The notes under the pieces are model-generated. The model worked only from the letters and a program-made list of their open reading frames with translations. It was not told where the DNA came from and did not search any database. Positions 1 to 7,745 of a stretch of 7,745 nucleotides of DNA are shown here, piece by piece. The translations under genes were made by a program, and so were the position numbers. Position 1 is the stretch's first letter. Each line of letters starts with the position of its first letter. The stretch spans positions 1 to 7,745 of IMG/VR virus record IMGVR_UViG_2671180921_000004. The stretch is one strand, 5' to 3'. Origin of the DNA: a virus. Taxonomy: Duplodnaviria > Heunggongvirae > Uroviricota > Caudoviricetes.

Positions 1-16
1 GATAGCCATAAGTGTT

Positions 17-157
17 TTATCCATTTTGGGGAACTCCTGGCTGATTAAGTACGTCGATGAGTCGTTTCCATCCGTCACGTAATTTACGTGTGATTCGCTC
101 AAGTAAAGATTCGGAAGGGCAGCCAGCAACAGGCCACCCTGCAATGGCATATTGCAT
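17..157 (-). CDS. cIII: cIII-like regulatory protein (FtsH/HflB inhibitor that stabilises cII), 46 aa
   Basis: Not in the ORF track (under 60 aa). Minus-strand translation from the ATG at 157 gives MQYAIAGWPVAGCPSESLLERITRKLRDGWKRLIDVLNQPGVPQNG*, matching lambda cIII as I recall it almost residue for residue over the N-terminal 43 aa. A TAAGGAG Shine-Dalgarno lies about 6 nt upstream. Stop TAA is at 17-19 (plus-strand tta). Confidence 0.8.
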   Translation of the reverse strand: MQYAIAGWPVAGCPSESLLERITRKLRDGWKRLIDVLNQPGVPQNG

Positions 158-262
158 GGTGTGCTCCTTATTTACGCTTTAAATTGCTCCGTGTATTCAC
201 TCGTTGGAATGAATACACAGTGCAGTGTTTATTCTGTTGTTTATGCCAAAAATAAAGGCAGA

Positions 263-886
263 CTATGCGGCCTCGGAAGGAAGTCCAATCATCTTATTCA
301 AATCTTCTACCCGTAAAGCAGGAAGTGCTGTACTTGCTTTATCTGCTTCTTTTGGTAGCAATTCTTTGCTTTCAGGCCAAACTTCAATAAGTCGCTTAAC
401 TGTTGTGACTGAGTTCAAAGCAGCCCATACATTTGATTCGATATCCTTTTTCTTGTCTTCAAGTTTTTGTTGCAATGCGCAGATTTCATCAAACCTTTTT
501 GTTATTTCGTGTTCTGCGTCAAACATGCATTTATCTTTGGTCGGAGTAGGGAGCAATATATCTTCGCCGTTGCCGTCTTTCCCATATGAATGCCATCCAA
601 CCCTTCTGCCAGATACAGTCAGATAAATCGAAGTAGAACGAACATCGCATGAGTAAAATGAACATCCCATCTTTTCAAGTTCTTCACTTATAGCTACTAA
701 CCTGGATGATAACTGATCCACTTCATCAGTTTTCTTTTTACCGCCAAACGCAATAACTCTGGCGTCAAGTGCAAGCTGGTTCTTTAACTTTGTTACTTCT
801 TCAAGTTCAGTGAAAACCCCAGACTTAATTAAAGCGTTACGAGCGATTTCCTCTTTCATTCTCGTAGTTAAGCGGATTGATGACAT
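263..886 (-). CDS. hypothetical early-left (PL operon) accessory protein, 208 aa
   Basis: Long minus-strand ORF (track 263..946). The start was chosen at the internal ATG at 886 (MSSIRLTTRMKEE...), which is preceded by GAGAGGA; the longer track ORF would run to within 2 nt of the N stop. Same orientation as cIII and N. No family recognised from the sequence alone. Confidence 0.6.
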   Translation of the reverse strand: MSSIRLTTRMKEEIARNALIKSGVFTELEEVTKLKNQLALDARVIAFGGKKKTDEVDQLSSRLVAISEELEKMGCSFYSCDVRSTSIYLTVSGRRVGWHSYGKDGNGEDILLPTPTKDKCMFDAEHEITKRFDEICALQQKLEDKKKDIESNVWAALNSVTTVKRLIEVWPESKELLPKEADKASTALPALRVEDLNKMIGLPSEAA

Positions 887-947
887 ATTAATTCCTCTCA
901 AATAAGTGGTTTGCTGCCTAATTTCATTTTCTGGCGACCAACACAAG

Positions 948-1220
948 TCATCTTGCTGTCAGTTGTTTGGATTTCCGGTAGCCTGCCGCGTAAAGAGCTA
1001 CGTTCGGAAGACAAGTTGAGCCTTCATATTTTCTGGTCAACGTTGTCAGTGTTATTACTTCTGCTCTCATTGCTGGTTTGCGCTTGCATTGCAAGACCAC
1101 TCGAGAGGGGGTTGGTCTGTGTAGCTTGTCGGAGCTAATCGCCTCCTGACTTTGCAGGTTTGCGCGACGAGCTCTACGACGAGAAGCTGAGGTGCCTTTA
1201 AATTCTGTTTTTCTGGACAT
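948..1220 (-). CDS. N: N-like transcription antitermination protein, 90 aa
   Basis: Start taken at the ATG at 1220 (MSRKTEFKGTSASRRRARRANLQSQ...), preceded by GGGAGGA. The N-terminal arginine-rich motif SRRRARRA resembles the lambda N ARM (QTRRRERRAEKQ). The C-terminus LPNVALYAAGYRKSKQLTAR resembles the P22 gene 24 (N-like) C-terminus as recalled. It lies immediately downstream of the nutL and PL elements. Confidence 0.75.
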   Translation of the reverse strand: MSRKTEFKGTSASRRRARRANLQSQEAISSDKLHRPTPSRVVLQCKRKPAMRAEVITLTTLTRKYEGSTCLPNVALYAAGYRKSKQLTAR

Positions 1221-1318
1221 AGATTCCTCCCGAATAAACTTTGGTGATGCAATCTCGAAGCTCCTCCTGAGACGGTTGCTTCGGCATTGCATCCCACAGC
1301 TCATGTGGTTGGGTGATC

Positions 1319-1365
1319 TGGCTTTTCAGCCACGTAGTCGAGAGTTCGACGTTGTTTAAAGAGCC
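1319..1365 (-). promoter_or_regulatory. nutL: nutL site: boxA-like GCTCTTTAAACAAC (1351-1364) and boxB hairpin UGGCU-GAAA-AGCCA (1319-1332) on the leftward transcript
   Basis: Read on the minus strand, GGCTCTTTAAACAACG is followed 18 nt later by TGGCTGAAAAGCCA (5-bp stem, GAAA loop). Both elements have near-identical counterparts at nutR (4084-4129). Position between PL and N matches lambdoid layout. Confidence 0.6.
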
Positions 1366-1410
1366 TGCCAGTCTGTTCCGTTTGGCTTCCAGCGTCCTGC
1401 TGACGGTTAA

Positions 1411-1439
1411 ATAGTACGATATGTACTTTATTGGGTCAA
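1411..1439 (-). promoter_or_regulatory. PL promoter with embedded operator (OL1-like): -35 TTGACC (1434-1439), 17-bp spacer, -10 TACTAT (1411-1416)
   Basis: Minus-strand read is TTGACC-caataaagtacatatcg-TACTAT. The spacer and -10 region carries AAAGTACATATCGTACT, which is 15/17 identical to a motif in the PR spacer (3813-3829). Confidence 0.55.
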
Positions 1440-1625
1440 TACGATTTGTTCTAAAATAGGGTGGTTTTTTATAACACTTTGTATTTAATAGTGTTGTTTT
1501 TTAGCGTGGGTGTATCGCCTCGGCGATGTAAGGAGAGATCAGAATTGCGTGGTTTAGTGAGTTGTATCTATTTATTTTTCAATAAATACATTTGGTTATG
1601 TGTTTTTAGGTGGCGAACGTGAGGC

Positions 1626-1651
1626 AAAGAAAACCCGGCGCTGAGGCCGGG
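1626..1651 (-). terminator. rho-independent terminator closing the leftward cI/TAC transcription unit
   Basis: On the minus strand the hairpin CCCGGC-ctcagc-GCCGGG (plus 1634-1651) is followed by TTTTCTTT (plus 1626-1633). It sits 10 nt downstream of the stop of the SecB-like gene. Confidence 0.6.
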
Positions 1652-1660
1652 TGGGGAATT

Positions 1661-2065
1661 TCACTTATTACTGTTCGTTTCCATGGGATTGGCCAAGAAA
1701 TCAAAATAAGGCAGAGTGAACCTACCAAGATTTGACATGAGGATAATTTGCTCGGCATATGTTTTTATATAGGGATATGCCATATTGGGAGCAATGGACC
1801 TTACCTCATATGATTTTGCCATTTCATGAGAAAAATCATCTTCTGACCGGAAGTCAAAGTCGTATGTGATGTCCATCTCAAGCCTGCCTTCAATAGTTAC
1901 GGAGGCAAAATATCTCACTCTAAATAGCTTTGAATCCTTCACATTAGTGTAAAGTTCATTATTTAGATTAACGGTTGTTTTTATGGCTTTTTTTGCTGTT
2001 GAATCGCCTTCTAGCCGTGTCATAACCAAGCGTTCAACTTTTTTGCTAATGAGTTCAATTTTCAT
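1661..2065 (-). CDS. SecB-like chaperone, third gene of a toxin-antitoxin-chaperone (TAC) cassette, 134 aa
   Basis: ORF track 1661..2065. Its start ATG overlaps the upstream gene's stop by 4 bp (ATGA), indicating translational coupling. The C-terminal region ...SIAPNMAYPYIKTYAEQIILMSNLGRFTLPYFDF... resembles the E. coli SecB segment ...[38 protein letters not shown]... as recalled. Size is similar to SecB. Product call is from memory-based similarity only. Confidence 0.6.
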   Translation of the reverse strand: MKIELISKKVERLVMTRLEGDSTAKKAIKTTVNLNNELYTNVKDSKLFRVRYFASVTIEGRLEMDITYDFDFRSEDDFSHEMAKSYEVRSIAPNMAYPYIKTYAEQIILMSNLGRFTLPYFDFLANPMETNSNK

Positions 2066-2718
2066 GGTAATAATAAGTAATTTCCGTCAGAAGTCATTTC
2101 GTCATTCAGGTTGCTAGCCGCTGTGAAACTTGATGACAAGTTACTTATCAAAGAAAAAACATTCCGTTTTTCTTTGCATTTGCCGTTACCCCTTACTGCG
2201 CTGAACAACATTTTTGAAAAGTAAGATTCTGTAGCCTTTTCAGCGAAATAAGCAGAAGGTGATGTGACGGCTGACTCACACCGAGCAATGACGCTAGTCA
2301 TGGCTGTTTCTTCTTCCTCTGCGTCAACTAGGCTCCATTCAATTGCGCTCATATCTTGAATTAAGATATCTGCAGGAATTCCAAGTCCGTCATGTAGTCT
2401 ACGGATCATTGAAAGACTTAATGGACGCTTACGATTTAAGACCTCAGATACTTTAGATGCTGAGCCAATGTATTGTTTCATATCGGCATAAGAGAGGCCT
2501 TGTTGATCCATACGGAACTTGATTGCTTCTATGGGATCTGGCTTGTCCATAGGGAACTCGCGTGACTCATAGTGCTCGATAAGCAAGCCTAGTAGTTCAA
2601 ACTCATCAAAATCTTCAGTTCCAGGTTGTAAATCACTAGACGCAAGTTCAATGAGCCTTTCCATAGCTGCAGCATGCTCTTCACTATTTTTAATGATGCG
2701 CCAGCTAGTTCGATTCAT
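2062..2718 (-). CDS. higA: HigA-family HTH (XRE-type) antitoxin with a ~96-aa C-terminal extension, 218 aa
   Basis: ORF track 2062..2718. Residues about 66-121 (IKFRMDQQGLSYADMKQYIGSASKVSEVLNRKRPLSLSMIRRLHDGLGIPADILI) align with the HTH end of E. coli HigA (...IRTLMDQYGLTLSDLPEIGSKSMVSRVLSGKRKLTLEHAKKLATRFGISPALF) as recalled. GGAGG lies 5 nt upstream of the ATG. 4-bp ATGA overlaps with the HigB stop upstream and the SecB-like start downstream. Confidence 0.8.
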   Translation of the reverse strand: MNRTSWRIIKNSEEHAAAMERLIELASSDLQPGTEDFDEFELLGLLIEHYESREFPMDKPDPIEAIKFRMDQQGLSYADMKQYIGSASKVSEVLNRKRPLSLSMIRRLHDGLGIPADILIQDMSAIEWSLVDAEEEETAMTSVIARCESAVTSPSAYFAEKATESYFSKMLFSAVRGNGKCKEKRNVFSLISNLSSSFTAASNLNDEMTSDGNYLLLP

Positions 2719-3002
2719 TTAAGCCTCCACTTGTCGTACTCTGCATGAGTTCCAACTCTTTCAACTATGACCATTCCTGCCTGGTAAACAACTTGGACAA
2801 CGAGCCGATAGTTATTGCCTTTTATATTAAAAATTACCCTGTTGTTAGGAAGGAAGTCGGCAGAATTAAATCTATTCCGTATGTCTTGAGTCGTTTTCCA
2901 GTTTTCTCTTATCACTTCATCATACCAAGAGTCTAAAGCCCCCTTGGCCTGATTGTGCTTCCGGCTAAAACTGTGAAGCTTCTCTACGTTTAAGACCTTC
3001 AT
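2715..3002 (-). CDS. higB: HigB-family toxin (RelE/ParE superfamily mRNA interferase), 95 aa
   Basis: ORF track 2715..3002. The segment NRVIFNIKGNNYRLVVQVVYQAGMVIVERVGTHAEYDKW aligns with E. coli HigB HYVFNVGGNELRVVAMVFFESQKCYIREVMTHKEYD as recalled. Toxin-first gene order is typical of higBA. Confidence 0.85.
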   Translation of the reverse strand: MKVLNVEKLHSFSRKHNQAKGALDSWYDEVIRENWKTTQDIRNRFNSADFLPNNRVIFNIKGNNYRLVVQVVYQAGMVIVERVGTHAEYDKWRLK

Positions 3003-3024
3003 AATCCGATTTTGTTCCCTCTTT

Positions 3025-3057
3025 GGGAATTATAGATTCATTTCCCATAAAGGGAAT
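3025..3057 (-). promoter_or_regulatory. putative promoter and operator of the higB-higA-secB-like operon: -10 TATAAT (minus strand, plus 3029-3034) flanked by GGGAAT / TTCCC-ataaa-GGGAA inverted repeats
   Basis: A perfect TATAAT hexamer on the minus strand lies 26 nt upstream of the higB ATG. GGGAAT occurs at 3025-3030 and 3052-3057, with TTCCC at 3042-3046 forming the dyad TTCCC-ATAAA-GGGAA. No good -35 is visible. Antitoxin autoregulation sites are typically palindromes over the promoter, which is the basis for the operator call. Confidence 0.35.
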
Positions 3058-3087
3058 CTGTATTTTTATCCAGAAATGCTATGTACA

Positions 3088-3747
3088 TCACCCAAACGTC
3101 TCTTCAGGCCACTGGCTAGCGATAACTTTCCCCACAACGGAACAACTCTCATTGCATGGGATCATTGGGTACTGTGGGTTTAGTGGTTGTAAAAACACCT
3201 GACCGCTATCCCTGATCAGTTTCTTGAAGGTAAATTCATCACCACCAAGTCTGGCTATGCAGAAATCGCCGGGCTCAACAGCTTGCTCTGGGTCAACCAG
3301 AATTAACATCCCGTCAGGAAAACTAGGTTTGGAACCTGTTGGGGCGGTCATTGAGTTACCTTCAACCTCAAGCCAGAATGCAGAGTCACTGGCTTTTTTG
3401 GTTGTGCTTACCAATCTCTCCGCATCGCCTTTGGTAAAGGTTCTGAGTTCTGGAGAGAACATCCCAGCCTGAACATGAGAAAAAACAGGGTACTCATATT
3501 GTTTTTTAACTGGGGCCGATGAGTATTCGCCAACAGGTGAAAATGTCCCGTCGTGGTTGAATGATATGTTATCAATACCAAGGTATTTAAACACCACACC
3601 AATATCACTAAGAGATGGATGACGAGATCCGCGCAACCAGTGTCCAATCCCACCCTGCGTCATACCTAGCTCTTCGGCTAACTTCTCTTGAGTTATGCCG
3701 AGCTCTTTCATTCTGGATCTAGCCAGTTCATACCATTTCATTTTCAT
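3088..3747 (-). CDS. cI: cI-type prophage repressor: heterologous N-terminal HTH domain fused to a lambda-cI-like C-terminal LexA/S24 autocleavage and dimerisation domain, 220 aa
   Basis: The C-terminal ~135 aa ([28 protein letters not shown]...[18 protein letters not shown]) are near-identical to lambda cI as recalled, including the Ala-Gly cleavage region and the catalytic Ser/Lys context. The N-terminal ~85 aa ([45 protein letters not shown]...) are not lambda-like. Start taken at the ATG at 3747 (alternative ATG at 3741); the track ORF extension to 3909 would cross the operator region into cro and is rejected. Confidence 0.9.
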
Positions 3748-3857
3748 GTCCTTATTATTACGCTCTGTATTGCAACCATCCATGCACAATGTGTATTTTT
3801 GCTTGCATTCAAAAAGTACATATTGTATTTTTTCTTCATGGTTACTATGGAGGGCAT
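3748..3857. promoter_or_regulatory. OR region with divergent PRM/PR; PR -35 TTGCAT (3803-3808) and -10 TATTTT (3826-3831); operator-like repeats with TGTATT cores at about 3760-3775, 3784-3799 and 3813-3829
   Basis: 110-bp gap between divergent cI and cro. The motif AAAGTACATATTGTATT (3813-3829) sits in the PR spacer and -10 and matches the PL spacer motif at 15/17 positions. Two further related repeats (CACAATGTGTATTTTT, CTCTGTATTGCAA) recur at about 26-32 bp spacing. Confidence 0.55.
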
Positions 3858-4073
3858 ATGAGCAACCTACGAAAATATCGAGAGTCACTGAATATCTCTC
3901 AAACAACACTTGCTAAGGCAGTTGGATGCACACAGGGAGCTATCGGACATTGGGAATCTGGTCGTCGCTTCCCAGACCTTAAAACATGCCGTGCTCTTGT
4001 TGCGTGTCTAAACAAGTTAGGCGCAAAAGTAAGTCTTGATGACGTGTTCCCGCCGGAGCACAAATCCGCTTAA
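3858..4073 (+). CDS. cro: Cro-like HTH (XRE-family) regulator, 71 aa
   Basis: Start at ATG 3858 with GGAGGG 4 nt upstream. The HTH region [24 protein letters not shown] parallels the cI N-terminal HTH ([24 protein letters not shown]), as expected for two proteins sharing operators. Divergent from cI. The longer track ORF from 3789 lacks an RBS and overlaps the operators. Confidence 0.8.
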
Positions 4074-4083
4074 TAAGCGGAGC

Positions 4084-4129
4084 CGCTCTTTGTAACAACG
4101 GACATTCGTCCTACGTCGCTGAAAAGCGA
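4084..4129 (+). promoter_or_regulatory. nutR: nutR site: boxA CGCTCTTTGTAACAAC (4084-4099) and boxB hairpin UCGCU-GAAA-AGCGA (4116-4129)
   Basis: Immediately downstream of cro. Near-identical in architecture and sequence to the nutL elements on the opposite strand (boxA GCTCTTT..AACAAC; boxB N-GCU-GAAA-AGC-N). Confidence 0.6.
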
Positions 4130-4214
4130 GCCCCAAGATATCTGACCAACTAAGGCCATATGCGTTTCCACGCATACCTTTCAACTAACTATTCACTATT
4201 GGAAATCTTAAGAA

Positions 4215-4511
4215 ATGGAACAAACAAGTTACAGCAAACTATCACAGCGTGACGTTGATCGCGCAGAAACAGATTTACTCATCAACCTGTCAACGCTTAC
4301 CCAGCGTGGTCTGGCAAAGATGATTGGCTGTCATGAATCGAAGATAAGCAGAACGGACTGGCGGTTTATTGCTTCGGTCTTGTGTGCTTTCGGAATGGCA
4401 TCAGACATCAGTCCAATTAGCAGGGCTTTTAAGTATGCGCTTGATGGAATCACAAAGAAAAAACGCCCGGCGGCAACCGAGCGTTCTGAACAAATCCAGA
4501 TGGAGTTCTGA
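4215..4511 (+). CDS. cII: cII-like transcriptional activator, 98 aa, with a lambda-identical C-terminal tail and a divergent N-terminal region
   Basis: The C-terminal 18-19 aa (KKKRPAATERSEQIQMEF) match the lambda cII C-terminus as recalled. The N-terminal ~80 aa differ from lambda. Position between cro/nutR and O is canonical. Confidence 0.8.
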   Translation: MEQTSYSKLSQRDVDRAETDLLINLSTLTQRGLAKMIGCHESKISRTDWRFIASVLCAFGMASDISPISRAFKYALDGITKKKRPAATERSEQIQMEF

Positions 4512-4533
4512 GGTCATTACTGGATCTATCAAC
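4457..4533 (-). ncRNA. oop: oop antisense RNA (about 77 nt), antisense to the 3' end of cII, with its rho-independent terminator
   Basis: The minus-strand sequence GTTGATAGATCCAGTAATGACCTCAGAACTCCATCTGGATTTGTTCAGAACGCTCGGTTGCCGCCGGGCGTTTTTT matches the lambda oop RNA as recalled. GC-rich hairpin (plus 4464-4483) followed by a U-tract. Confidence 0.6.
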
Positions 4534-4543
4534 AGGAGTCATT

Positions 4544-5443
4544 ATGACAAATACAGCAAAAATACTCAACTTCGGCAGAGGTAACTTTGCCGGACAGGAG
4601 CGTAATGTGGCAGATCTCGATGATGGTTACGCCAGACTATCAAATATGCTGCTTGAGGCTTATTCAGGCGCAGATCTGACCAAGCGACAGTTTAAAGTGC
4701 TGCTTGCCATTCTGCGTAAAACCTATGGGTGGAATAAACCAATGGACAGAATCACCGATTCTCAACTTAGCGAGATTACAAAGTTACCCGTCAAACGGTG
4801 CAATGAAGCCAAGTTAGAACTCGTCAGAATGAATATTATCAAGCAGCAAGGCGGCATGTTTGGACCAAATAAAAACATCTCAGAATGGTGTATCCCTCAA
4901 AACGAGGGAAAATCCCCTAAAACGAGGGATAAAACATCCCTCAAATTGGGGGATTGCTATCCCTCAAAACAGGGGGACACAAAAGACACTATTACAAAAG
5001 AAAAAAGAAAAGATTATTCGTCCGAGAATTCTGGCGAATCCTCTGACCAGCCAGAAAACGATCTTTCTGTGGTTAAACCGGATGCTGCAATTCAGAGCGG
5101 CAGCAAGTGGGGAACAGCAGAAGACCTGACCGCCGCAGAGTGGATGTTTGACATGGTGAAGACCATCGCGCCATCAGCCAGAAAACCGAATTTTGCTGGG
5201 TGGGCTAACGATATCCGCCTGATGCGTGAACGTGACGGACGTAACCACCGCGATATGTGTGTGCTTTTCCGCTGGGCCTGCCAGGACAACTTCTGGTCCG
5301 GTAACGTGCTGAGTCCGGCCAAACTCCGCGACAAGTGGACCCAGCTCGAAATCAACCGTAACAAGCAACAGGCAGGCGTGACAGCCAGCAAACCAAAACT
5401 CGACCTGACAAACACTGACTGGATTTACGGGGTGGATTTATGA
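4544..5443 (+). CDS. O: replication initiation protein O (origin-binding), 299 aa
   Basis: Translation matches lambda O as recalled (MTNTAKILNFGRGNFAGQERNVADLDDGYARLSNMLLEAY...). AGGAG RBS upstream. Contains the ori iterons internally. Stop overlaps the P start (ATGA). Confidence 0.95.
   Translation: MTNTAKILNFGRGNFAGQERNVADLDDGYARLSNMLLEAYSGADLTKRQFKVLLAILRKTYGWNKPMDRITDSQLSEITKLPVKRCNEAKLELVRMNIIKQQGGMFGPNKNISEWCIPQNEGKSPKTRDKTSLKLGDCYPSKQGDTKDTITKEKRKDYSSENSGESSDQPENDLSVVKPDAAIQSGSKWGTAEDLTAAEWMFDMVKTIAPSARKPNFAGWANDIRLMRERDGRNHRDMCVLFRWACQDNFWSGNVLSPAKLRDKWTQLEINRNKQQAGVTASKPKLDLTNTDWIYGVDL
4892..5016. other. origin of replication (ori-lambda type): four ~19-bp iterons with internal dyad TCCCTC-N5-GAGGGA, followed by an AT-rich DNA-unwinding region
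   Basis: Iterons visible at about 4892-4910, 4911-4930, 4931-4955 and 4956-4980 (ATCCCTCAAAACGAGGGAA, ATCCCCTAAAACGAGGGAT, ATCCCTCAAATTGGGGGAT, ATCCCTCAAAACAGGGGGA), then AAAAGACACTATTACAAAAGAAAAAAGAAAAGATTA. Located inside the O coding sequence as in lambda. Confidence 0.85.
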
Positions 5444-6141
5444 AAAACATCGCCGCACAGATGGTTAACTTTGACCGTGAGCAGATGCGTCGGATCGCCA
5501 ACAACATGCCGGAACAGTACGACGAAAAGCTGCAGGTACAGCAGGTTGCGCAGATCATCAACGGTGTGTTCAGCCAGTTACTGGCAACTTTCCCGGCGAG
5601 TCTGGCTAACCGTGACCAGAACGAACTGAACGAAATCCGCCGCCAGTGGGTTCTGGCTTTCCGGGAAAACGGGATCACCACAATGGAACAGGTTAACGCA
5701 GGAATGCGCGTAGCCCGTCGGCAGAATCGACCATTTCTGCCATCACCCGGGCAGTTTGTTGCATGGTGCCGGGAAGAAGCATCCGTTATCGCCGGACTGC
5801 CAAACGTCAGCGAGCTGGTTGATATGGTTTACGAGTATTGCCGGAAGCGAGGCCTGTATCCGGATGCAGAGTCTTATCCGTGGAAATCGAACGCGCACTA
5901 CTGGCTGGTTACCAACCTGTATCAGAACATGCGGGCCAATGCGCTTACTGATGCGGAATTACGCCGTAAGGCCGCAGATGAGCTTGTCCATATGACTGCG
6001 AGAATTAACCGTGGTGAGGCGATCCCTGAACCAGTAAAACAACTTCCTGTCATGGGCGGTAGACCTCTAAATCGTGCACAGGCTCTGGCGAAGATCGCAG
6101 AACTCAAAGCTAAGTTCGGACTGAAAGGAGCAAGTGTATGA
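5440..6141 (+). CDS. P: replication protein P (DnaB helicase loader), 233 aa
   Basis: Translation matches lambda P as recalled (MKNIAAQMVNFDREQMRRIANNMPEQYDEK...). ATGA overlap with the O stop. Confidence 0.95.
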   Translation: MKNIAAQMVNFDREQMRRIANNMPEQYDEKLQVQQVAQIINGVFSQLLATFPASLANRDQNELNEIRRQWVLAFRENGITTMEQVNAGMRVARRQNRPFLPSPGQFVAWCREEASVIAGLPNVSELVDMVYEYCRKRGLYPDAESYPWKSNAHYWLVTNLYQNMRANALTDAELRRKAADELVHMTARINRGEAIPEPVKQLPVMGGRPLNRAQALAKIAELKAKFGLKGASV

Positions 6142-6428
6142 CGGGCAAAGAGGCAATTATTCATTACCTGGGGACGCATAATAGCTTCTGTGCGCCGGAC
6201 GTTGCCGCGCTAACAGGCGCAACAGTAACCAGCATAAATCAGGCCGCGGCTAAAATGGCACGGGCAGGTCTTCTGGTTATCGAAGGTAAGGTCTGGCGAA
6301 CGGTGTATTACCGGTTTGCTACCAAGGAAGAACGGGAAGGAAAGATGAGCACGAACCTAATTTTTAAGGAGTGTCGCCAGAGTGCCGCGATGAAACGGGT
6401 ATTGGCGGTATATGGAGTTAAAAGGTGA
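6138..6428 (+). CDS. ren: Ren protein (confers resistance to Rex exclusion in lambda), 96 aa
   Basis: Translation MTGKEAIIHYLGTHNSFCAPDVAALTGATVTSINQAAAKMARAG... matches lambda Ren as recalled. ATGA overlap with the P stop. Confidence 0.8.
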   Translation: MTGKEAIIHYLGTHNSFCAPDVAALTGATVTSINQAAAKMARAGLLVIEGKVWRTVYYRFATKEEREGKMSTNLIFKECRQSAAMKRVLAVYGVKR

Positions 6429-6453
6429 CCATCTACATCACTGAGCTAATAAC

Positions 6454-6486
6454 AGGCCTGCTGGTAATCGCAGGCCTTTTTATTTG
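6454..6486 (+). terminator. rho-independent terminator (tR2-like) downstream of ren
   Basis: Hairpin AGGCCTGC-tggtaatc-GCAGGCCT (8-bp perfect stem) followed by TTTTTATTT on the plus strand. Confidence 0.65.
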
Positions 6487-6500
6487 GGGGAGAGTAAATC

Positions 6501-6707
6501 GTGGTTGAGTTGATTTTTTCTGCATTGAGGATTCTCGGTGCTATGTGGATGGTGTCGACGTTCATTGCGGTTGTCGGAAGTTTTGTCCGGTTGGTAGGCG
6601 AAGGTAAAGACCTGGTGGGTGTGCTGTTCGGTAGCATTCTCCTGTGGGTGATTATCGGTGTTGCGCCTGTCGCTGTAGCAAAAATGGCGTGGCGTTTTGT
6701 TAGTTGA
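6501..6707 (+). CDS. small hydrophobic protein with two predicted transmembrane segments, 68 aa (GTG start)
   Basis: ORF track 6501..6707. Two hydrophobic stretches (ILGAMWMVSTFIAVVGSFV and LVGVLFGSILLWVIIGVAPVAVA). GGGGAGAG lies about 6 nt upstream of the GTG. Coding status is uncertain: short, non-ATG start. Confidence 0.4.
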   Translation: MVELIFSALRILGAMWMVSTFIAVVGSFVRLVGEGKDLVGVLFGSILLWVIIGVAPVAVAKMAWRFVS

Positions 6708-6714
6708 GGGGAAT

Positions 6715-6993
6715 ATGAGCGAGATCTACCGACAATTCGAAGAGTGGTGGTCAAAACACAAAAGCCCGTTCACGGAAGACGATGAGCTAAAAGAGTTTGC
6801 CTGGGAGATATGGCAGGCATCGCGAGCAACTATTGAACTGGATATCGACTGGCCCGAATCGAATGACGACTTTTGGAAAGATGGTGAAGAAGGTGCTTAT
6901 GCGATGGGTTATGAGGATGGGCGTGACAAAACGGTAATTGCAGTAATGAAAGCCATCAGGGCCGCAGGAATCAAAGAAAAGAATTTCGATTAA
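6715..6993 (+). CDS. hypothetical small acidic, Trp-rich protein, 92 aa
   Basis: Start taken at ATG 6715 (MSEIYRQFEEWW...), preceded by GAGGGG. About a quarter of residues are Asp/Glu. No recognised family. Confidence 0.55.
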   Translation: MSEIYRQFEEWWSKHKSPFTEDDELKEFAWEIWQASRATIELDIDWPESNDDFWKDGEEGAYAMGYEDGRDKTVIAVMKAIRAAGIKEKNFD

Positions 6994-7125
6994 GCAAATA
7001 TCACTTCAATAAATCGCTTTTAAGGCATCACAATCGCTCTGTAGTGAGGTAAGTGCGTGCAAGGAATGCCGATAAGCAGCGAGAATGAAAAATGCGTCAG
7101 AATGCGTTTGAGGAGGTTTTAAGAA

Positions 7126-7341
7126 ATGAGTACGGTAGCTGAACTTGTCAGGGCTAATTTTCGTGAAGAGTTGGTGCGTTGGTATCGGTATCGTTCATCG
7201 TCCAGTTTGCCGCTTGATGAGTTGTATGAGCATTCACCTGCCGCACGACGCTATCCGCGTGACCGTGTTCTTCGACGGTTGTTCAAACTCAACAATGAGT
7301 TTCAGCGCAACAGAATTATCCGGAGTCTGGATTTAAAGTGA
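7126..7341 (+). CDS. hypothetical small basic protein, 71 aa
   Basis: ORF track 7126..7341. Strong AGGAGG RBS about 9 nt upstream of the ATG. Arg-rich. No recognised family. Confidence 0.45.
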   Translation: MSTVAELVRANFREELVRWYRYRSSSSLPLDELYEHSPAARRYPRDRVLRRLFKLNNEFQRNRIIRSLDLK

Positions 7342-7351
7342 AGGAGTGAGC

Positions 7352-7534
7352 ATGAGCGAGCAAATATTCAGAGAGATTAAGCCACGGTTTTATCGCAAGG
7401 TAAGGGTGGTTTATCAGGACGAAAACAAGACCTGTGCATACGCCATTCATAATGGTCGGTGGTCAGTGTTCGACACCAAAAACTTCGAGAAGAACTTCGA
7501 GAGGATTAAGGGTGATGAGGAAACTAACATTTGA
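7352..7534 (+). CDS. hypothetical small protein, 60 aa
   Basis: Start taken at ATG 7352 (MSEQIFREIK...) with AAGGAG 5 nt upstream; the track ORF begins at the GTG at 7346. Its 3' end overlaps the ninB-like start by 20 nt. Confidence 0.45.
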   Translation: MSEQIFREIKPRFYRKVRVVYQDENKTCAYAIHNGRWSVFDTKNFEKNFERIKGDEETNI

Positions 7535-7745
7535 ACTAAGAAGCCCCATCCATCAGCAGAACGCCATTCCAGCTAGCCAGCAAATCCTGCCAGCCCCAAC
7601 CTAACCAACCGTAGTAACCATTCAGGACCGCAACCGTAGCTTAGACCACAACCGAAAGCTCCGAGATTGCCCTGGTGACGTCTCGCGTCAGGTTGAATGG
7701 CCGGATAGTTGTCTGGATGCCGAAAGCTGGACGTGTGTGTTTACC
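7515..7745 (+). pseudogene. ninB: ninB/Orf-family recombination protein homologue, interrupted by an in-frame TAA at 7602-7604 and truncated by the window end
   Basis: Frame from ATG 7515 reads MRKLTFELRSPIHQQNAIPASQQILPAPT*PTVVTIQDRNRSLDHNRKLRDCPGDVSRQVEWPDSCLDAESWTCVFT, versus lambda NinB MKKLTFEIRSPAHQQNAIHAVQQILPDPTKPIVVTIQERNRSLDQNRKLWACLGDVSRQVEWHGRWLDAESWKCVFT as recalled. The stop replaces the Lys codon at position 30. Not in the ORF track because of the stop. Confidence 0.5.

Follow-up and report, generated by a model that had tools for sequence, protein, structure and literature searches.

The window analysed here, a stretch of 7745 bases of viral DNA (IMG/VR record IMGVR_UViG_2671180921_000004, positions 1–7745), was recognised from its open reading frames and Pfam matches as the early control region of a lambdoid prophage. 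Within it, the repressor gene cI (3088–3747, minus strand; 219 amino acids) and cro (3858–4073, plus strand; 71 amino acids, all-helical HTH_3 type) diverge around three dyads in a 110-bp gap (the right operator, OR). A second operator cluster (the left operator, OL; OL1–3, 1412–1486) lies at the leftward promoter PL, upstream of the antiterminator gene N (948–1220, minus strand; Pfam N_peptide, 1e-31), which is the first gene of the PL transcript. An earlier reading of the letters alone (the original prediction) had proposed that PL and the rightward promoter PR share one architecture, with a common 17-bp operator in the promoter spacer that would be recognised by both CI and Cro. Judged from the sequence, the window very probably carries a lambdoid prophage's immunity region of the VT2-Sakai/Sp5 type. 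The motifs first noticed are then OR1 and OL1, each the promoter-proximal member of a cluster of three operators.

Operators and promoters of the window

Both 17-mers were found exactly as described: AAAGTACATATCGTACT at 1413–1429 on the minus strand, within TTGACC-17-TACTAT, and AAAGTACATATTGTATT at 3813–3829 on the plus strand, within TTGCAT-17-TATTTT. They agree at 15 of 17 positions and are the sole matches in the window at up to three mismatches (expected number 0.04; two or more matches in 0 of 200 shuffles). Since the 17-mer pattern is derived from the data, a blind repeat finder is a fairer test than this mismatch search; run without prior knowledge, it returned the pair as inverted repeat I4 (1409–1429 / 3813–3833; 21 nt, 86% complementary). 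The dyad AGTAC-ATATC-GTACT claimed for the OL copy is present, and its 15 nt are exactly the informative operator core which, as deduced from the aligned sites, is a 15-bp dyad (ARTACR-NNN-YGTAYT), given by convention as a 17-mer. The motif is therefore real, but its frame had been drawn one base off the dyad centre; when centred, the two copies occupy 1412–1428 and 3814–3830.

The original prediction had found OL1 and OR1 but missed four more copies (OL2, OL3, OR2 and OR3). A symmetric matrix was built from five sites with the sixth left out, each in turn, and every left-out site ranked 1–8 among 7729 positions. OR1 (AAGTACATATTGTATTT; 3814–3830, plus strand), which overlaps the PR spacer and -10, has the best score (20.6; leave-one-out rank 1). 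OL1 (AAGTACATATCGTACTA read toward N; 1412–1428, minus strand; score 19.0, rank 3) overlaps the PL spacer and -10. OL2 (CAATACGATTTGTTCTA; 1437–1453; rank 5) has a 3-bp overlap with the PL -35, and OL3 (TATAACACTTTGTATTT; 1470–1486; rank 5) follows it. On the other side, OR2 (ATGCACAATGTGTATTT; 3782–3798; rank 8) abuts the predicted -35 of PRM, the maintenance promoter of cI, and OR3 (TATTACGCTCTGTATTG; 3756–3772; rank 8) overlaps the predicted PRM -10. The centre-to-centre spacings are OR3-26-OR2-32-OR1 and OL1-25-OL2-33-OL3. Two extra matrix matches, at 2155–2171 (13.0, within a HigA-like gene) and 1584–1600 (10.8), were rejected as operators: they lie outside the control regions and near the range given by shuffled sequences (mean maximum 9.9, largest 18.6).

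PL (1411–1439, minus strand) is predicted from a -35 TTGACC (1439–1434), a 17-nt spacer and a -10 TACTAT (1416–1411); it was recovered by a generic promoter scan, and its position is annotated in VT2-Sakai as the major leftward promoter. PR (3803–3831, plus strand) does read as claimed, with -35 TTGCAT (3803–3808), a 17-nt spacer and -10 TATTTT (3826–3831), and is the homologue of the PR annotated in VT2-Sakai, which has TTGTAT as its -35. The two promoters share a core made up of the -35 hexamer, 5 nt and the 17-bp dyad, the last 5 bases of which make up most of the -10. The operator's TGTA was also weighed as an extended -10 (TGn) and discarded, as the TG stands directly against TATTTT, in the wrong register. 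The common architecture proposed for PL and PR thus holds for the core promoter and the O1 site but not for the second operator, which is placed differently: OR2 ends 4 bp short of the PR -35, without overlap.

PRM (3754–3782, minus strand) is predicted with a weak -35 TGGATG (3782–3777), a 17-nt spacer and a -10 AATAAT (3759–3754), and coincides with the 'maintenance promoter for cI' annotated in VT2-Sakai. Its transcript would start at the A of the cI ATG (3747) or close to it. Both the window and five relatives (L086–L090; the relatives are described below) have this ATG at a fixed distance of 8 nt from OR3, on its cI side, which would fit a leaderless cI message as in lambda. A start at 3783, which is annotated in AP005153 and would give a 231-amino-acid cI, was rejected, as the gene would then run through OR3 into OR2; it is the ATG at 3747 that keeps the fixed distance.

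Immunity type and conservation of the operators

The segment 3088–4080 is 97.9–98.6% identical at the DNA level to AP005153 (a Shiga toxin 1 (Stx1)-converting phage), Stx2 II, Nil2, 1717, YYZ-2008 and 2B8, the last being a non-Stx phage; matches to cI-cro also include many PA-series Stx2a phages. In VT2-Sakai (Sp5; AP000422) the PL-N segment is 93% identical and OR aligns base for base with that of the window. In AP000422 and AP005153, OL and OR each carry three annotated 17-bp "putative operators", and all six map onto the window; the two records also mark PL, PR, nutL, nutR, a CII binding site and the maintenance promoter for cI. This annotated layout and the six operators at homologous positions are common to the VT2-Sakai group (including AP005153, Stx2 II, Nil2, 1717, YYZ-2008 and the PA-series). 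The window thus has cI and cro near-identical to those of a VT2-Sakai/Sp5 type phage, with the same OR and OL operator sequences apart from a few substitutions: OR1 and OR2 are identical to the annotated and published VT2-Sakai sites, and OL1 to the 'putative operator' of AP000422 and AP005153 and to the published VT2-SA OL1, while one substitution is seen in OR3 (C to T), one in OL2 (A to G) and two in OL3. All these differences fall outside the invariant TAC/GTA core. The window differs from VT2-Sakai also in the PR -35 mentioned above, in the spacers of PR and PL, and between OL and cI, where VT2-Sakai has H0092 and H0093 and the window a HigB/HigA/SecB-like cassette. Given the assignment to the Sakai/Sp5 group, homoimmunity with many Stx1 and Stx2 phages would be expected.

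The operators have appeared in the literature before. Table S5 of Yin et al. (2015) lists the same six 17-mers as putative Sakai-type operators, with the R and L labels swapped, and attributes them to Fattah et al. (2000; Genes Genet Syst 75:223); according to Table S1 of Sedhom and Solomon (2023), these six 17-mers were synthesised for electrophoretic mobility shift assays (EMSA). The OR1 17-mer gave no match in a full-text literature search; it is present in that supplementary Table S1. By sequence identity, then, the motifs first noticed are OR1 and OL1 rediscovered, already annotated and published and not new, and the practical value of a correct six-site operator map for the window is small. 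What the present analysis adds, at the level of sequence comparison, is the conservation of the system across a family in which Cro identity is 45–79% and its covariation with the recognition helix.

Both presumed readers of the dyad score above the Pfam HTH_3 gathering cut-off of 23 for this helix-turn-helix (HTH) family: cI residues 11–58 with 41 bits (1.9e-10) and Cro residues 4–52 with 46.4 bits (4.2e-12). The likeness between the two that had been noted earlier is borne out by the comparison of the cI N-terminal domain with Cro (36% identity, E = 6e-13), and the recognition helices read TQGGIGHW (cI) and TQGAIGHW (Cro). The C-terminal domain of CI is of the lambda type (Peptidase_S24, 1.1e-28), that is, a self-cleaving domain of the LexA/S24 class; residues 84–219 match the lambda CI structures 3bdn and 8gmu, and the sole natural substitution relative to lambda CI is Trp to Leu (...GDAER(W/L)VST...). 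A natural domain-swap junction can be placed near CI residue 83, where a lambda C-terminal domain (3088–3500) meets an N-terminal domain of unrelated specificity. Cro is annotated as cro in VT2-Sakai, 1717 and Nil2 and weakly matches P22 C2 structures (E about 0.009). The PDB entry 28tn ('lambda repressor-like protein', 82 amino acids) matches Cro residues 1–70 at roughly half identity (E = 3e-17) and resembles the Silvania-type relative described below.

Natural alleles were collected from 82 loci, of which 80 are IMG/VR loci with 99% identical Cro and two are annotated phage loci. They carry 37 distinct OR and 18 OL alleles, those of the window included. Variable positions are fewer in the half-site core (13/72) than in non-operator intergenic sequence (42/104; Fisher p = 0.0017), and within the operators the changes among alleles are mostly at the centre and the outer edges.

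More distant comparisons were made with Cro relatives of 45–79% identity from an Enterobacteriaceae isolate, Erwinia, Rahnella, Thorsellia, Pantoea, Nicoletella, Silvania, Actinobacillus and Avibacterium. In eight distant relatives (all but Actinobacillus) the recognition helix TQGAIGH(W/Y) is kept in Cro as well as in the divergent repressor, and it is accompanied by the same half-site at matching places. Matrix matches scoring at least 9 cluster in these eight almost only in two places, the first upstream of cro (centres near -96, -70 and -37 from the ATG; spacings of 25–26 and 32–34 bp) and the second 0.9–3.9 kb to the left (spacings of 24–26 and 30–33 bp), and stray matches are about as frequent as expected from shuffling. 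The promoter core is kept as well. TTGnnn stands 5 nt upstream of OR1 in six of the eight, and in all eight the last five OR1 bases, with one more, make up a PR -10 of TATTTT, TATTAT or TACTAT type; TTGAC(C/G) is found 5 nt upstream of OL1 in 4/6 relatives, and in the remaining two it is shifted by one base. The OR3 half nearest cI, CGTAATA, is kept in 7/8. The Cro/CI/operator family thus reaches from Erwinia to Pasteurellaceae prophages with its half-site ARTACR, spacing and promoter overlap kept.

In the Actinobacillus relative both recognition helices differ (GQGRISNY in Cro, GQSRIGNY in the repressor), and its sites are of TATCACAAATTGTGATA type, yet they keep the OL spacing of 25 and 32 bp. 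As far as these sequences go, helix and half-site covary naturally, with TCAC/GTGA found where the recognition helix differs. The operators of this locus (L093, Actinobacillus vicugnae; 3208–3281 and 4893–4964) are TATCAC...GTGATA-like and resemble lambda's TATCAC half-site. Well outside E. coli, then, the family keeps a fixed geometry and shows one natural change of specificity. The presence of six copies in two clusters, the conservation of the half-site and the covariation with the recognition helix together support the proposal that the motif is the probable recognition sequence of CI and Cro.

Several points weigh against this interpretation and should be set beside it. Over 46 sites the half-site is A-(A/G)-T-A-C-(A/G), with an invariant C at -3, A at -4 in 91/92 and no information past position 9 from the centre, but this profile is partly circular, the relatives' sites having been chosen by a matrix of the window's own six sites. 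The circularity covers the information profile only; clustering, spacing and position in the relatives are not circular. PR is below the threshold of the generic promoter scan, and the starts of PR (about 3838, plus strand) and PL (about 1404, minus strand) are predictions. Unlike in lambda, OR2 leaves the PR -35 free and has its centre 32 bp from that of OR1. Finally, in the one EMSA on these sites that the searchable literature contains, the protein was lambda CI and its binding weak (apparent dissociation constant 3.7–6.4 uM). Binding or footprinting with the cognate CI or Cro was not found in that literature (Fattah et al. 2000 lay outside the search), and searches for EMSA or footprints with Sakai-type phages returned only work with lambda CI or on other immunity types (933W, BAA2326). 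The Sakai type is among the commonest Stx-phage immunity types, and a study of cognate binding seems absent from the searchable literature.

The proposed switch and its alternatives

What is observed is the sequences, where they lie, how they are conserved and how they covary with the recognition helix; from these we infer binding itself, the relative affinities of the sites, the transcription starts, PRM activation and cooperativity. A lambda mechanism appears most likely for the switch of the window. The HTH domains of CI and Cro would both read the ARTACR-NNN-YGTAYT dyad. CI bound at OR1 and OL1 would cover the spacer and -10 of PR and PL and so block RNA polymerase; OL2 additionally covers the PL -35, and PL would be blocked by CI at OL1/OL2. 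On OR2, beside the weak PRM -35, CI would activate cI transcription as in lambda, and because OR3 covers the predicted PRM -10, excess CI, or Cro, would shut PRM off. Since a single substitution separates the C-terminal domain of CI from that of lambda CI, the protein would be expected to dimerise, to bind neighbouring sites cooperatively, to loop OL to OR and to cleave itself when stimulated by RecA, all in the manner of lambda.

The arrangement agrees with that of lambda in many respects. Divergent cI and cro flank a three-site OR whose dyads overlap the predicted PR and PRM, and a three-site OL stands at PL beside N, with nut sites; the O1 sites lie over the promoter spacer and -10, OR2 beside the PRM -35 and OR3 over the PRM -10; a leaderless cI message is probable, and the CI C-terminal domains are essentially identical. 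It differs in the operator half-site (TATCACCGC in lambda, ARTACR in the window) and in the DNA-binding domain, in that the window Cro is an all-helical HTH_3 protein outside the lambda Cro fold family, and in the OR1-OR2 spacing, which is 24 bp in lambda and 32 bp in the window. With 434 and P22 the window shares a repressor N-terminal domain and a Cro that are related HTH_3 domains and would read the same dyad operators. Operator length and sequence are different (the 434 operator is a 14-bp ACAA...TTGT and that of P22 is 18 bp), as is the C-terminal domain, which in the window CI is lambda's.

The alternative that survives best accepts the operators as real and supposes a switch wired unlike lambda's, in which cooperative pairing and PRM autoregulation differ, as in 933W and other Stx phages, and which could lower the repressor level. 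We consider it unlikely, though it has several points on its side: OR1 and OR2 are about three helical turns apart, the lambda-like 25–26 bp lying instead at OR2-OR3 and OL1-OL2; relatives with as little as 45% Cro identity show this asymmetry too; and OL2 overlaps the PL -35, whereas OR2 stops short of the PR -35. Moreover, PMC5977221 reports alternative binding strategies of Stx-phage repressors that lower repressor levels. On the other hand, the C-terminal domain of CI departs from that of lambda CI by one residue only. Lambda CI cooperates not only at its natural spacing of ~2.3 turns but also where the separation is a larger whole number of turns, and given this behaviour both spacings may permit ordinary pairwise cooperativity. 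We regard the asymmetry as probably functional because it is kept across the family, and lambda's cooperative logic may not be directly transferable.

One specific form of pairing, for which we hold out still less expectation, is that this repressor family pairs OR2 with OR3 and not OR1 with OR2, despite the lambda C-terminal domain present here. The suggestion is based on the recurrence of OR3-26-OR2-32/34-OR1 and OL1-25-OL2-30/33-OL3 from the Stx phages of E. coli to Pasteurellaceae prophages, and on the position of OR2 against the PRM -35, with the PR -35 left bare. If it were true, negative autoregulation of PRM would be tighter and repressor levels lower, which would offer a possible basis for the easy induction of Sakai-type Stx prophages.

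It is much less probable that the dyad is read by only one of CI and Cro, with the other recognising a distinct or extended motif within the same regions. Outside the HTH the two domains are only 36% identical, as such a division of labour might suggest, but their recognition helices are nearly identical between cI and cro in the window and in the family (TQG(A/G)IGH(W/Y)), and the repeat finder returned no second repeated motif in OR or OL. Least credible of all is the view that the two motifs are no site of protein recognition and owe their likeness only to a shared promoter core or to a recent exchange of sequence between PL and PR: the right end of the motif does double as the -10 and both regions are A+T-rich, but the motif is a dyad in six copies, some of them outside promoter cores (OL3, OR2), its promoter-distal half-site is conserved equally, it persists with its spacing in very distant relatives whose flanks cannot be aligned, and it changes along with the recognition helix.

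Neighbouring genes and mosaic make-up

N and the boxB-containing repeat stand where the PL and PR transcripts would need them. A boxB-like hairpin (GCTGAAAAGC) lies in the nutL region (1318–1337, minus strand), downstream of PL, and a second of GCTGAAAAGC type in the nutR region (4111–4130, plus strand), downstream of cro; the repeat finder gave the two as inverted repeat I3 (1318–1337 / 4111–4130; 20 nt, 90% complementary), which corresponds to the N-utilisation sites annotated in VT2-Sakai. Downstream of N in the PL operon is a gene of the Nmad5 family (263–886, minus strand; nucleotide modification associated domain 5, 6.6e-71).

A three-gene cassette on the minus strand (1661–3002) occupies the position of rexAB, between cI and OL. 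It encodes a HigB toxin (2715–3002; Pfam HigB_toxin, 4.5e-30; PADLOC PD-Lambda-2_A, 2.5e-42), a HigA-like HTH protein of 218 amino acids (2062–2718) whose match to PD-Lambda-2_B is confined to the N-terminal 125 residues of the latter, and a 134-amino-acid protein (1661–2065) with a match to PD-T4-9_C (the SecB-like chaperone CmdC; 3.2e-11); a terminator lies by it (1633–1652, minus strand). From these matches it looks like a toxin-antitoxin-chaperone defence module, and it is probably co-transcribed with cI from the predicted PRM. The cassette is carried at 99% identity by 88 complete E. coli genomes.

At least 80% of the window in one place was found in no phage record and no complete E. coli genome searched; the best coverage in these collections is 73%, split over several pieces. 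BP-4795-type phages gave the best whole-window matches and were absent from the 40 records that the cI-cro query listed. Loci with an OR identical to that of the window are present in IMG/VR. The window looks like a mosaic from these matches, and this combination of Sakai-type immunity, HigB cassette and flanking genes is, by the same comparison, one that is absent from the searched collections.

To the right of cro follow, all on the plus strand, cII (4215–4511; CII supported by Pfam), O (4544–5443) and P (5440–6141), with later genes beyond. On the minus strand just within cII, TTGCTGTAACTTGT at 4224–4237 is a near match to the CII box TTGC-N6-TTGC; VT2-Sakai has its CII binding site and PRE annotated at the corresponding place. 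Inside the O gene, four direct repeats of ~20 nt (ATCCCTCAAAACGAGGGAAA and variants; 4892–4978) are spaced by 20–24 nt; they are lambda-type origin iterons.

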